Origin: Escherichia coli O157:H7
Lineage (GTDB): Bacteria > Pseudomonadota > Gammaproteobacteria > Enterobacterales > Enterobacteriaceae
Strand: one strand, 5' to 3'
Length of the DNA stretch: 64,000 bases
NCBI RefSeq assembly: GCF_013167455.1
Contig: NZ_CP038328.1
Below are positions 41,901 to 47,900 of the stretch, in pieces. A program made the position numbers. Numbering within the stretch: position 1 is the stretch's first letter; every line of letters starts with the position of its first letter.

Positions 41901-44900
41901 ATCCAGCGCCAGCCTGGGGTCGGTATTAATGTTCTCCACCAGAAGACGCCCCATCGCTTTCACCGGATCGGGAAGACCATCCTCCATATATTCAATACCA
42001 GGAGACATCACCGCGGACGGTGGCATCTCCGGATTGTTTTCATCCGGCTGTGGTATTGCAGCCGCCTCACGGCGACGGGGTTTATCCTCCTGCTCTGATT
42101 TTTTCTGCCGGTAAACAGGAACCTCATCCACCTCCACCGTCTCGCATTGTTTACGGGCTATAAACGCAAGCACCTCCGGATCTTTTGCCAGCTGCGAGCC
42201 TTTAACCCTGGCGGTCTTCGCCGAATAACCAGCGGCAATGGCTGACGCTGTTTTGTTTTTCCCGGACATGAGCGCCAGCGCAAATTTTCGTTTTTGCGTT
42301 GTCAGCACAGCCTCCTCCCGGGTCCAGAACGCACTCAGCCGGGTATGGTTCAGCCCATTTTTCCCGGCGTCTCATGCCGCAAATGTTAACTGCTGCCTGG
42401 TTAACATTTGCTGAAAAAGCCAGTTAACATTTTTTCCGCACAACAAACTGAATAATAAAGATAAAAACCGCAAAAATGCCCGGACAGCCAGTTAACATGT
42501 TAACTGCCCTGAAACGGGAATTTTTTCTCTGCGTGAGAGGGGGGGCGGTGTCCGGGGCGATCGTTTTTTTCGCCGGATGATCCCCCCCCGGGGCGGGTCA
42601 CAGTCCGATGATATCGTCTGCCCTGCCATGACCTCCGGACACCTCCGGCAGCGTCGGGTCCGGCATACCACTCGCCGTTTCACTGACTGACTTCTGGCGA
42701 TGGCATTCGGTACAGAGCGTCCAGAGATTCGTCTCCTCATTACCACCACCGAACTGAAGTGCAATTCGGTGATCGAGTTCACTGTCACAGAGGTCAACCA
42801 CACGACCACAGAGACAGCACTGCCCGGCATCCCTGAGCCAGATACGGCGCTTGAGGGAAACCCGGGCACTACCACTGACCCGACGCTGTTCACCCTTCAG
42901 GACATTCACCCGCCGGGTGTTCAGAGTTTTGATTCTGCCCGGTAACGTACGAAGCACAGCCATGTAAAATCCTCGCCATATAACTTGTCACCAGAGGAAA
43001 GAAAATGTCATCGAAAAACCGGACCCGCAGAACAACAACCCGCAACATCCGATTTCCAAACCAGATGATTGAACAAATTAACATCGCTCTTGACCAGAAA
43101 GGTTCAGAAAATTTTTCTGCGTGGGTCATTGAATCTTGCCGCCGGGAGCTGGCAGCAGACATAAAATATGCCCGTCAGTTGACTATAAAAAAGAATGATA
43201 CACAGTATGCTCTGCGATGGCTGTTCATATAACTATTTCTTTATATTGCTGAATTTATAAAAACTCACAGACATTAGCTGTATTAATTCCGAATTGAAAT
43301 AATCAGCCATATAGAATAAAAATAAAGCATAACAATAATAATCTTCTACCCAATCAGTACATTACTGCTGTGACTCCAACACGGCAGTTTTTTTATTGAA
43401 CAGATTCCAGTTTCTTCCACCATCGCACCGGACGGGCGACCATGAGGGGAGAACGCCGCGCTCCGTTTACGCGGTAAACCCCGGTGTGTATCGTTTTTGA
43501 TTATCCCCGCACACTCTCGCAGAGGAGTCTCCCTGTCGGGCTGCGGTCTCTGTTAATGCAGGAATACGGCGACGATACGGCGCATCAGCAAAACTTAGTT
43601 CAGGCACTGAGTGCGGATATAGTCCTGTGCCCCTTCCAGCTGCTTCTGCATTGTCATCAACCGTTCTCTGAGGATGAAATAATCCCGTTCAGCGGTGTCT
43701 GCCAGTCGGGGGCCGGTTGCATTATCCACGCCGGAGGTGCCGGTGGCTTCACGCACGGTACCGGAGCAGGTGGCGTTGATCCGCAGGCGCTTACGACCAG
43801 CGGCAACATCAGCACGCAGAGTTTCATTTTCAGCTCTCGCATCGGCTAACTCCCTCGAGTATTTTGCATCGAGCGCAGCAACATCACGCTGGCGCACCTG
43901 CATGTCAGTAATGGTGGCATTCGCCTGTTCCAGCTCTCTGGCTTTTTTATCGCGCTGCGCTTTGTAGGTGAGCGCGTTGTCACGGTAATGGTTTGTTGCC
44001 AGCCACAGCGCACCACAGCCAACCGCCAGGACAATAATCACCACACACAGAACACGGTTCATCTCTCTTTCACCCCACCAGTCCCGATAACGTCAGGACT
44101 CGCCAGGCGGTGGAAAAGAAAATGGCAACCAGCATGACTAAAAATGAAATGCCGACAAGTACACAGAGGCTCTTCACCAGCGTTATGAGTTTATCTGATA
44201 TCATTAGCCACCCCATCAATCCGCCTTTGTTATTTTCCCTTTGCCTGTATCAGCCAGGACAAAATCAATCAGCATATTCGCTTCATTTACCAGCGTACGG
44301 ATTTTTGATACATGCGCGGCTTTAACCTGTTTCCACTCATTCAGCCCGGTAGCAAACACACTGGCAATGTTTTTATCCCGTTTCATGTCAGCACAAGCCT
44401 GGTTGAGTTCTTCCATCACGCTCATTTTACGGGGATTAACGACAAAACCCTTCGTCCAGTACTCGTAAAGAACATCGTCGCACTCTTCCTGATACCGGAT
44501 GACCTTATCGCGGATTTCGGGTTTTACTTTGTTGGGATTAATGGTTTGTAGCCAGCCGGCAAGTTTTCGAAGTGGCATGGACACCATATTGCGTTGTTTC
44601 CCATCCTCAGCAACCATAACGATTTCCGTTATAGTTGACGCAAAACGCTGTCTTAACTTAGCCAACTGTGATTGCCAGGCCAGCCCCATCCCCGCAACGA
44701 CAGGTTTCATGGGAACGTATGGTTCGCCATTATGGTTAACTACATAAAGAGAGTTGCCGTGAAACGGCACGGCCATCATATTCATCGGTTATTTCCTTTT
44801 AGTGATGAACCTTGTCTCACAGGAATCCAGCCCACAGAAAGGCACCGACAGCCAAACCGGTATCCTCAAGGGTCATCCTGAAAGGTTCTGTGTTGTGAGA

Positions 44901-47900
44901 TGCGCGTGAGATGCGCAGAAATGACAAAGGCATCATTACGGTGCCTGAGTGTTAAACAACTGTTTTGACTTTATTCACTTACATTTTGCCAATTTGCAGG
45001 ATTTCGTGTTATCCGTCCATGTAAGCAAACCTCATTTTTCAGCAAAATATTCTTCTTATCTGTCGATTCCCCAGCACGCCAGCGCGCTCTCCTGGTCACG
45101 ACGGGATATCTGACCGTAACAGTTGTTTGAACGAATACGGCAGTCTCTGCCACCGTCCTTAATCCACCAGCGAATCGCTTCGCAGGCACCTTTTCGATCA
45201 CCTGCATTAATTCGTCTGTAAAACGTCGACGGGAAACACTTACCGGGACCAATGTTGTACGGACAGAATGACGCGATCCCCGCTTTCTGGGGTTCGGTCA
45301 GCGGCACTTTGATGTTTTTCTCCACCCATGCCAGCGCCTTATCACGCTCAATGGCGTTAACCTGGTCGCATTTTTCCTTCGACAACTTCATGCCCGGGAC
45401 GACAGGTTTACCATCCACCAGGATGGCACCGCGGCAGATGGTCCAGATACCCGTACCATCACGGTATGCTGTGGTGTGGTTACCTTCCTTTTCATCCAGA
45501 AACTGGTCGAGGATTTCAGGCGCAGACGCCCCTGCACCAATCAGCGCCAGAACGGCAGCCGACAGGCCGTATCTGATTTTTGCGTTCATGGATATTTATC
45601 AGGATTTATCGATTTCAAATCCCTGGATATGTTAAGTCTTCAGGCCAGCGGTGGAGTCTTCAGAGAACCCGTAATTATTCCCGGTAGTTTTCCTCTGTAG
45701 GTTATCAACACATCCTGCGCCTCTAAAATGATGGGCCGCTTTTCCGGCAACGGACCATCCCCTTCACATAACCCGGCAGCAACATCCATGAAAAACTGCT
45801 TCGCCTGCTTTTTCGCCTCAGCTTCGTAAAACTCCAGCGTGGCACCTTCAGTACGGTCAAGACTAATCGCCACATCTGGCAACAACAGTGACGGATACCC
45901 ACCAATTTCCAGTGCCACAGTAACAGTAATCTTATCCGGGTAATTATTTATCCCTTTAACAACCAGTTCGTATTTTTTCTTCATCGCTTTACTCTCCCCG
46001 CGCCGCCTTACGCTTATCTTCTTTAATCTTGAAATAAAGGTTTGTCAGATACGTCAGCAGGCCAAACAGCAGACTCCCCAGCACACCTATCGCCACCCAC
46101 TGGGACGGAGAGACTTTGTCCAGCAGCTGCAGTAACCAGTATCCCGTCCCCACCGCTGACGTGGTGTATGACACACCCGTTGTGATTTTTTCCATCTGAT
46201 GTATGTCTCCGTCACCGCCGACAGAAAATGAAAGTAAAGGAAAACAAAAAAGCCGCCAGTGTCACCCACTGACGGCCAACGCCGGGAGCCGTGATTATGG
46301 CATTCAGGCTCTGCTAAAAATGCCAGATAACATTCCGGCCTCCCCCGATTCAGGTTATAAATGACACAATATCTTGACAACATCCGTCACTGTCTGTCAG
46401 AAAATGTACTGCCATATAGAAGCAACATGTGAAGTACATCTATCCTTTTGAGCCAGCACCTCTCCACCGAAAGTCAGTGCTGGCTGTTTTTTTCCTTAAT
46501 AAAGCATCTGTAACTGAAACAATCCGCATATTGATAATATATTGACAGGCATCATTGCTGTCTGTGAAAAATAAGTCTCTACAAACATATAAGGCCTTTT
46601 AGCCAGCGTCTTCTTTTTCAGGTCAGTCGCTGGCTTTTTTTATTATGCTGCCGGTGCATTTATCTCCAGCATCAGACTTTCTATCTCAACGCCATACGCT
46701 GCATTTTTTGTAACATCCGTCAGCGTCAGCGCATTCAGTCCCAGTGTCAGACTGTCTTTTATAACCTGGAATGCCGGGCCAGCCACTCCATTCAGTTTCG
46801 GAGTAACCGTGGCACTGCCGGCGGTGAACACCAGCTCCAGCGTCTGCCAGTCGTTACCGTAATCGCCGAACTCCCCCAGCTTCGTGTTTCCGGCTTTCCT
46901 GTGATGCATCAGATTCACTCTGCCGTCAGTGGTCTGAGTGAAGTACGACATCAGGAACGGATTACCGGTACCCGTCATCGCCACACCATCAGGAACGGGA
47001 GCATCCGTATACAGATAAATCCCCAGCCCGAACTGATTGTTGGTCAGCGCGCCTGACAGGCGGAACTTACAGGTCAGTCTGCCGCCCTGTGTCAGCAGGG
47101 TAATTGCGTCATCCACCGGATGCGTCAGGGACCAGGTTTTATTGCTCTGCTTGGTGATCTTAAATACACCATCTGACAACTGAATTCCGCCATCCTTAAT
47201 GCTCCAGCCCTGCGCAGCAGCCTCTCCGGCTGCCGGCAGCAGGGAGATTGTGCGAACGGACGTATCTGCAGACGGACCCGATGGCGTGTTGCCGCCGGGC
47301 GAGGGTTTGATTTCCGGTGCCTTACCACTGATGAAGGCTGAGGTGCGCCCGGCTGCGTTCAGAATAGCGGTTGCCAGACGATCCGGAATAATGCTCCTGC
47401 GCGCCCATGAACTGAAATGTGTCGGGCGGTTTGATGATACCTGGTTTCCATTCGTTCTCGATGCCGCACCGTAATATCCTGATGCCGGAATATCCGGATC
47501 TTCTGCCGGCGCGTTAGTGGCGGTATTGACGCCGTTACCGTCTGTCATGAAGGGCACAAAATAAACGCCCTCACTCTCCCTGTTTTTATACCCGCCGTAC
47601 ACGGTGTCGTACTGGGTAGCGTATGTATTTTTCCAGTAATACGTCGTGTCACCACAAATCCACGGCACATCTGCAGCACTGCCACCATGGCACTGCGCGT
47701 TAAACACGGAGAGGTCAGCACGAAACTGTGTCAGCATGGCTGTAAACAGCGCAGGTTGCTGTGCGTGGGTGGCGGCGCTCATGTCAAACTCTCCCTGCAT
47801 CCAGCACACCGCCAGCAACACATTTTTCGGGTTCTTCTGTAATGCAGCTTTAGTGCGCGCAATCAGGTCCTGATATAACGGTTTACCCACACCCCAGCGT

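Follow-up and report, generated by a model that had tools for sequence, protein, structure and literature searches.

The lysis cassette of a lambdoid prophage in Escherichia coli O157:H7 and its three additional genes, ydfR, an antirepressor-like gene and a small membrane protein gene

We analysed the lysis genes of a lambdoid prophage carried on a 64,000-nucleotide stretch of the Escherichia coli O157:H7 genome (contig NZ_CP038328.1 of assembly GCF_013167455.1), which is referred to below as the window. Judged from sequence, the region 43595-46195 is very likely a canonical late-operon lysis cassette of the type found in Shiga toxin (Stx) phages, in which three cargo genes are interspersed among the genes for lysis. 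Reading along the minus strand, it comprises a P21-type pinholin gene, ydfR (114 amino acids), an endolysin gene of the signal-arrest-release (SAR) type, an Ant-like gene, an open reading frame (ORF) of 48 amino acids that we call orf48, and the Rz gene with Rz1 inside it. A first-pass annotation, made from the sequence alone, had described two inserted genes; there are three, the membrane ORF of 48 amino acids between ant and Rz having been overlooked. The ends it gave for all of its ORFs were nonetheless exact, and the E-values of the hidden Markov model matches lie far past chance. As a sequence feature the cassette holds nothing new, being a standard Stx-type lysis cluster that has already been sequenced and annotated and in which every ORF belongs to a named family. 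For ydfR, the evidence laid out below favours mobile late-operon cargo over a component of the lysis machinery.

The lysis genes

The holin gene (45989..46195, minus strand) encodes a class II holin of 68 amino acids of the S21 type, in a single-start allele. The resemblance to the phage 21 pinholin that had been seen at first reading is borne out by a full-length match to PF04971, 'Bacteriophage P21 holin S' (residues 2-64 against positions 1-63 of a 64-position model, E-value 1.3e-32), together with matches to phrog_9876 and phrog_20 ('holin'). Its first transmembrane domain (TMD1) is weakly hydrophobic, no 17-residue Kyte-Doolittle window exceeding 1.0 in residues 1-26, and TMD2 is strongly hydrophobic (peak of 2.14) and carries the motif G37xxxS41xxxG45. 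The ratio of nonsynonymous to synonymous substitution rates (dN/dS) is 0.12-0.16. We did not find the dual-start motif from which both an antiholin (S71) and a holin (S68) arise: the first in-frame start that follows the stop codon upstream is the methionine equivalent to that of S68. The dual start, Met-x-x-Met in a protein of 71 amino acids, occurs in K-12 EssQ and in many sister alleles ('MYQMEKI...'), but it is a regulatory feature which holin function does not require. The upstream methionine seems to have been lost through a recombination junction at the holin start, because homology to the 71-amino-acid 'MYQMEKI' allele of phage Stx1_111698 begins just 3 nt upstream of the ATG (46195-46260, minus strand).

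The endolysin gene (45056..45589, minus strand; 177 amino acids) belongs to the T4-lysozyme/R21 type, with PF00959 covering residues 33-167 (E-value 4.6e-24). The protein aligns end to end with R21 (PDB 3HDE) and RrrD (PDB 4ZPU), including the N-terminal Gly/Ala/Ser-rich SAR segment, which confirms the segment proposed earlier: residues 9-23 (LSAAVLALIGAGASA) fall opposite R21's own SAR segment in the 3HDE alignment, and the catalytic motif E35-x8-D44-x5-T50 lines up with that of R21. The N-terminus is mildly hydrophobic, with a Kyte-Doolittle peak of just 1.69, and dN/dS is about 0.06. The Rz inner-membrane spanin (43595..44062, minus strand; 155 amino acids; phrog_13, E-value 1.6e-75) has an N-terminal TMD, residues 1-22 being hydrophobic. 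The Rz1 outer-membrane spanin (43657..43842, minus strand; 61 amino acids; phrog_3198, E-value 1.7e-31) lies wholly within Rz, as had been recognized, and its offset of 220 nt from the Rz start places it in the +1 frame; it shows a lipobox, V-S-A-C20, followed by a proline-rich mature part.

By analogy with phage 21, the S21-type pinholin would build up in the inner membrane and, at a set time, would flip its weakly hydrophobic TMD1 outward, make small holes and collapse the membrane potential. The alignment with R21 suggests that this depolarization would free the SAR endolysin from its membrane tether, and the enzyme would enter the periplasm, refold there and degrade murein; Rz and Rz1 would then, as in phage 21, fuse the inner and outer membranes as the last step of lysis. 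The extra genes would stand outside this machinery.

Searches aimed at other features of the cassette were negative. An Rfam scan of 43595-46195 returned no RNA family, and a search of NCBIfam failed to assign the holin, YdfR, Ant, Rz or Rz1 to any curated family. A promoter scan was no richer than shuffled sequences (4 found against 5.0 expected), and therefore we do not claim an independent promoter for ant.

YdfR and the DUF1327 family

The ORF of 114 amino acids (45984..45640, minus strand) does lie between the holin and endolysin genes, as the first-pass annotation had placed it, yet its description there as devoid of any recognizable motif does not hold. The product matches PF07041 (DUF1327) over its full length (model positions 1-92 of 93, E-value 5.2e-46) as well as phrog_406 (E-value 1.8e-64), and RefSeq names it 'YdfR family protein'. 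The homology and structure searches that had been proposed for this product recovered the DUF1327/YdfR family by homology, while Foldseek against AFDB50 returned DUF1327 proteins alone, so that the fold searches yielded no structural relative. Searches of PDB sequences with YdfR, and likewise with the Ant-like protein, gave nothing meaningful, and inspection of hydropathy disclosed no transmembrane segment in YdfR.

The conserved core of YdfR consists of its N-terminal 74 residues or so (1-74), with a beta-beta-beta-alpha arrangement. The AlphaFold2 model of this N-domain is confident (predicted local distance difference test score, pLDDT, of 89.5; predicted template modelling score of 0.77) and shows three antiparallel strands followed by a helix of 25 residues, whereas the tail, with pLDDT below 50, is predicted to be disordered. 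The two parts also evolve differently, since dN/dS is 0.23-0.28 in the N-domain, indicating purifying selection, and 0.65 in the tail, which is barely constrained. Even so, the N-domain evolves faster than the holin or the endolysin. Two other assignments were considered and dropped. The N-domain has neither a Pfam dsrm match nor the alpha-beta-beta-beta-alpha fold of a double-stranded RNA-binding domain, and, with DUF1327 as the sole match and no TMD, YdfR is not a member of the antiholin or releasin families (T4 RI and RIII; Mu gp25, DUF2730).

The DUF1327 family is small, with 282 clusters at 90% identity in a database of 5.8 billion proteins and 97 representatives at an E-value of at most 1e-3 among 1.84 billion. 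The N-domains of 20 out of 20 diverse members match PF07041, and AlphaFold-DB matches widen the range from Escherichia and Shigella to Salmonella, Yersinia, Hafnia, Providencia, Morganella and Rosenbergiella. It is the tails that vary: they are missing from forms of 72-76 amino acids, specific to the strain in K-12, 40 residues long in the window, and extended by an extra coiled-coil-like segment in forms of 176-183 amino acids. The 3′ end of ydfR (45640-45650, compared with L009 2836-3323) is an indel hotspot, at which phage 2H10 has 487 extra bases that give a YdfR of 183 amino acids with a coiled-coil-like extension. In the Stx1_14040 group, which comprises some Stx1a phages, the cassette has about 900 extra bases and YdfR matches the window protein over residues 1-83 only.

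The first-pass annotation had also considered that the ORF might not be conserved in related phages. We found ydfR in 101 phage records, in at least 525 IMG/VR stretches and in the Qin prophage of K-12, and the selection on its N-domain given above agrees with this conservation.

The only experimental data that we found on YdfR function concern the K-12 protein (PMC13232886). It emerged when RNase G was used in a two-hybrid screen (Goepel et al., RNA Biology 2026, PMC13232886) and was shown to bind the catalytic N-terminal domain of RNase E, in a two-hybrid assay as well as through co-purification of Rne(1-598). For this binding, residues 1-72 of YdfR suffice, and the purified protein carries DNase-resistant nucleic acid (PMC13232886). 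The window protein is 47% identical to K-12 YdfR over residues 1-74, which cover the RNase E-binding fragment and correspond to the conserved core of the family. Because of this identity over the binding segment, RNase E or RNA binding is our best mechanistic guess: by analogy with K-12, the activity that we would rank first for the window YdfR, albeit tentatively, is that it may bind RNase E's catalytic domain, RNA, or both, late in infection.

The insertion between the endolysin and Rz genes

The second and third extra genes occupy the interval between the endolysin (R) and Rz genes. A spacer of 270 nt (44786..45055, minus strand), in which the ant module has its left edge near 44961, separates the endolysin gene from the Ant-like gene. 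It contains an ORF of 39 amino acids upstream of ant (44817..44936, minus strand; phrog_16173, E-value 3e-21) that has no visible Shine-Dalgarno sequence and may represent either a spurious ORF family or a leader peptide. The Ant-like gene itself (44216..44785, minus strand; 189 amino acids) sits between the endolysin and Rz genes, as the first-pass annotation had stated for an antirepressor-like gene, and its product combines P22_AR_N (E-value 2.3e-45) with ORF11CD3 (E-value 1.8e-5) and matches phrog_524, 'anti-repressor Ant'. Pfam found these two domains only, and no Ant C-terminal domain, in the 189-amino-acid protein, which the Prokaryotic Genome Annotation Pipeline names 'phage antirepressor N-terminal domain-containing protein'. 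Compared with P22 Ant, the window protein thus shares P22_AR_N and has ORF11CD3 in place of the Ant C-terminal domain, and its gene lies in the late lysis cassette instead of an immI-type region. The literature on the Ant of Phi24B does not apply here, as it deals with a different, early-region gene whose product has a P22-like C-terminus (PMC3064807).

The gene orf48 (44070..44216, minus strand) encodes a protein with a single TMD (Kyte-Doolittle peak of 3.04) that matches phrog_4906 (E-value 5.4e-30), a PHROG of unknown function, and has no Pfam match; we did not find it to belong to the antiholin or releasin families. It has been annotated as hypothetical in BP-4795 (ORF50), Stx2a_WGPS2 (gp66), Stx1_EH1995 and FRIK1989. 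It is tightly packed, its start overlapping the ant stop codon (ATGA) and its end lying 8 nt before Rz. Its true start may be an internal methionine at 44204, giving 44 amino acids, because the forms found in loci without ant begin with 'MSDKLI'.

When the window was aligned with Stx1_111698, a phage without ant whose S-ydfR-R segment is 97% identical and which has the same Rz family at about 90% identity, homology stopped at 44962 and resumed at 44065. A discrete block of 897 nt (44961..44066) takes the place of about 200 nt that, in Stx1_111698, hold a different hydrophobic ORF of 32-33 amino acids. We found the leader-ant-orf48 block at a coverage of at least 80% in at least 252 phage records, among them many Stx2a phages without ydfR. 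Gene neighbourhoods around ydfR were counted in 80 IMG/VR loci, and the R-Rz interval takes several forms in them: about 1,000 nt with the 189-amino-acid ant gene and orf48 (18 loci), about 490 nt with a transmembrane ORF of 60 amino acids and a 43-amino-acid homologue of orf48 (27 loci), about 300 nt with a transmembrane ORF of 33 amino acids (14 loci), and about 1,200 nt with an unrelated ANT-type gene of 231 amino acids and two very small transmembrane ORFs (2 loci). The interval is a hotspot for tiny ORFs of 31-60 amino acids with a single TMD (loci L033, L041, L032, L039, L046 and L074). The ant and orf48 genes together make up a discrete insertion of 897 nt in this hotspot, where sister phages carry other small membrane ORFs and other genes of the ant family.

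The two genes of the block differ in their persistence. Homologues of orf48 of 43 amino acids, at 62-65% identity, hold the same slot beside Rz in loci without ant, with dN/dS of 0.23-0.40. Because a homologue stays next to Rz at this identity and under this selection, we conclude from sequence comparison that orf48 is a real resident gene of the Rz junction and that ant is a variable insert.

Cargo or lysis genes

The first-pass annotation had left ydfR as either a lysis regulator or unrelated cargo. The second of these stood up better, since distant members of the family lie in tail modules or near unrelated holins, YdfR has no TMD and the partner of its K-12 homologue is RNase E; the role of lysis regulator is the less favoured one. 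In loci L011-L013 and in the Salmonella phages 29485 (L018) and vB_SosS_Oslo (L019), whose annotation of the gene cites ES18 gp24, the DUF1327 gene sits between the lambda-like tail genes M and L. Elsewhere it follows the tape-measure gene (L010) or Rz (L017) or lies upstream of Phage_holin_8/holin_3_7 genes (L015). These distant genes encode 72-86 amino acids, and in nearly all cases a small convergent ORF comes next. As a partner in a two-gene module this ORF was rejected, and DUF1327 has no conserved partner there, because the convergent ORFs come from at least four unrelated families (phrog_25324, ES18 gp25-like, a 70-amino-acid ORF and phrog_18578). With PADLOC, neither YdfR, Ant and orf48 nor the convergent ORFs matched a defence system. 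The evidence favours regarding DUF1327 as a family of mobile late-operon cargo ('morons') that settled at the S-R junction in Escherichia and takes up junctions of the tail module in other phages of Enterobacterales. YdfR itself would be small, soluble and cytoplasmic, with its translation coupled to that of the holin, and would be made in a fixed proportion to it: the ydfR ATG lies 4 nt past the holin stop codon, and a GGAG Shine-Dalgarno sequence lies within the last holin codons.

Several observations weigh against this reading or against the activity that we associate with it. The holin gene was upstream of ydfR in all 80 of the IMG/VR loci, with the gap of exactly 4 nt in 77, and the same gap occurs in mEp460, Evi, PhiR42_1, 2H10 and K-12 Qin; such tight linkage could mean a holin-linked role in the Escherichia sub-family. 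RNase E binding has been demonstrated solely for K-12 YdfR, at 47% identity to the window protein. In addition, few transcripts changed when K-12 YdfR was overexpressed, and for their RNA pull-down the authors were unable to rule out a contaminant (PMC13232886).

The linkage is also the starting point for an alternative in which YdfR acts as a cytoplasmic lysis-timing factor, antiholin-like or holin-chaperoning after the logic of T4 RIII, and would target either the pinholin on its cytoplasmic face or the SAR endolysin at its short cytoplasmic N-terminus. The coupling to the holin (4 nt, with the Shine-Dalgarno sequence in holin codons) persists in phages whose YdfR is merely 41-64% identical, the window holin allele lacks the dual-start antiholin form, which makes another regulator plausible, and a K-12 ydfR mutant emerged from an envelope-integrity screen (as cited in PMC13232886). 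However, that phenotype could be a polar effect on rrrQ, and many S21-type cassettes do without ydfR: of 503 phage records with a match to the cassette region, just 101 include it. Moreover, the distant members in tail modules or beside unrelated holin families have no S21 holin near them, YdfR has no membrane segment, and the sole partner measured is RNase E. We consider a lysis-timing role unlikely. We regard as more improbable still that recombination between lambdoid prophages simply carried the inserted ORFs along, as hitchhikers without a function or as artefacts of annotation. It is true that the S-R and R-Rz junctions are indel hotspots, that the tail of ydfR is barely constrained and predicted to be disordered, and that the prophage itself looks defective (its portal gene is split). 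Such a view is hard to reconcile with dN/dS values well under 1 for the ydfR N-domain and orf48, with the retention of DUF1327 across Escherichia, Salmonella, Yersinia, Hafnia, Providencia and Morganella, with the confident AlphaFold2 fold (pLDDT 89.5), or with the finding that K-12 YdfR is stable and has a specific binding partner.

For orf48 the balance is somewhat different. This gene and the other R-Rz ORFs with a single small TMD might be unrecognized accessory lysis proteins, acting on SAR-endolysin release, pinholin triggering or spanin activity, which would leave ant as the sole true cargo of that interval. The 43-amino-acid transmembrane homologue lies directly upstream of Rz in loci with ant and in loci without it alike, loci without ant have other transmembrane ORFs of 31-60 amino acids in that slot, and both the purifying selection and the tight packing, with ATGA overlap and 8 nt to Rz, accord with a function there. 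There is a precedent, conceptual only, in the Mu gp25 releasin, a small membrane-tethered controller of SAR endolysin release (PMC9239132). On the other hand, orf48 has no Pfam match, falls in a PHROG of unknown function and is unlike DUF2730, a length of 43-48 amino acids leaves almost no soluble domain, and 15 of the 80 loci have S, R and Rz yet no orf48. We therefore hold this role to be doubtful, if less so than a lysis-timing role for YdfR.

Returning to DUF1327 as late-operon cargo, one may speculate further that the family represents an unrecognized class of late-operon factor that docks on the catalytic domain of the host RNase E (and on RNA) and reshapes mRNA decay at the end of infection, and that Escherichia phages couple it stoichiometrically to the translation of their pinholin, while the R-Rz ORFs with a single small TMD, orf48 included, would modulate SAR-endolysin or spanin-mediated lysis. 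Taken as a whole, this proposal has perhaps a slim chance of being correct, below that of RNase E or RNA binding by the window protein.

Comparison with known phages and genomes

For identity searches we used a region of 3 kb around the cassette (43400-46400). Identity reaches 100% with a prophage of E. coli FRIK1989, 99.8% with a number of Stx1a-converting phages and 98.9-99.2% with YYZ-2008, BP-4795 and Stx2a_WGPS2, and at least 80% of the region was found in 569 of 5,426 complete E. coli genomes, about a tenth. H-19B, BP-4795, YYZ-2008, Stx2a_WGPS2, Stx1_EH1995 and FRIK1989 share the gene content and gene order of the window cassette, with 98.9-100% nucleotide identity, and the cassette is essentially without differences from theirs; H-19B and BP-4795 encode a YdfR protein that is 100% identical to the window's. 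The window holin is the 68-amino-acid single-start form that is also found in YYZ-2008 and Stx1_EH1995, whereas BP-4795 has the 71-amino-acid form. About 99% of 279 Stx phages compared elsewhere use a SAR endolysin and a pinholin, next to stx (PMC8136144).

The order S-ydfR-R is common to K-12 Qin, mEp460, Evi, PhiR42_1 and 2H10. Qin (essQ-ydfR-rrrQ-rzpQ/rzoQ) resembles the window in its holin (81% identity to EssQ), in the ydfR slot and in its SAR lysozyme (90% to RrrQ). However, its YdfR has 103 amino acids with a different, shorter tail, it lacks the ant and orf48 insert, R and Rz overlapping, and its Rz is of another family (DUF2514). With phage 21 the window shares the P21 holin S family, an R21-type endolysin with a SAR segment and the E-D-T motif, and an embedded spanin; it differs in having no dual-start (S71-type) antiholin codon and in its three extra genes. 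Phage 21 itself is not known to carry any of the three. Further afield, T4 RIII, a cytoplasmic antiholin cofactor, and the Mu gp25 releasin (DUF2730), which acts on SAR endolysins (PMC9239132), are likewise small proteins encoded with lysis genes. Nevertheless, YdfR has neither a TMD nor a match to those families, and orf48 has no Pfam match.

The surrounding prophage

All genes from the antiterminator gene Q to the terminase gene are on the minus strand. The Q-like gene (51792..52172, minus strand; phrog_79, E-value 1.5e-51) lies upstream of the cassette and the terminase gene downstream, and this gene order points to a Q-dependent late operon. A terminator-like hairpin with an 11-bp stem (7 G-C pairs) and a T-run is found about 55 nt upstream of the holin start (46251..46277, minus strand), in a non-coding gap of 450 nt after an esterase gene, where sister phages have DUF826 and DUF1378 genes. 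From the order of genes, Q-modified polymerase would be expected to continue past this hairpin (46277..46251) and transcribe S.

Two overlapping ORFs on the minus strand make up a split portal gene: 36510..37874 corresponds to positions 1-451 of the portal profile and 35290..36513 to positions 455-859. The FRIK1989 prophage with the identical cassette is annotated as having a 'portal protein, frameshifted'. Virion assembly by the window prophage is probably defective.

Upstream of the esterase gene, the region 48600-50700 has no stx genes. In this the prophage differs from its Stx-phage relatives, having instead a TerB-like ORF (49066..49569; a tellurite-resistance PHROG), as in the stx-negative PPyecE_EH1910, which is the best phage match for the region. 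The region also contains three transfer RNA genes, Arg-tct, Arg-tcg and Met-cat (49667-49918, minus strand), and an ORF resembling helix-turn-helix regulators (49947..50660). Two small RNAs detected with Rfam, the anti-GcvB RNA AgvB (48641-48702, plus strand, 96.5 bits) and STnc100 (48704-48897, minus strand, 142.7 bits), are adjacent on opposite strands just upstream of the esterase gene, which encodes a SASA/NanS-p-type protein of 616 amino acids.

In the early region of the prophage, Rfam identified a C4 antisense RNA (57501-57588, minus strand, 81.4 bits) and the Hfq-binding RNA isrK (57613-57689, minus strand, 62.2 bits), which suggests an antisense-controlled ant/immunity element of the P1/P7 type. 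An ORF of 405 amino acids (53172-54389, minus strand) joins a RusA-like resolvase (residues 1-113) to the phage transcriptional regulator phrog_129 (residues 137-403) and may reflect either a fusion or read-through from one gene into another. The small RNA sraL (268-408, plus strand, 153 bits) lies where the window begins, in apparently chromosomal sequence outside the prophage.

Significance

YdfR/DUF1327 is a widespread prophage protein, maintained by selection and present in clinically important Stx phages, for which the first biochemical lead, the binding of RNase E, dates to 2026. What it does is a question that concerns the family in general and is not specific to this window. Two observations should be useful for designing experiments, namely that DUF1327 behaves as late-operon cargo which also occurs in tail modules, and that tiny membrane ORFs have a hotspot in the R-Rz interval. 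Should any of these genes alter the timing of lysis or the stability of late mRNA, this would have a bearing on the release of Shiga toxin, since toxin release depends on late transcription and lysis.

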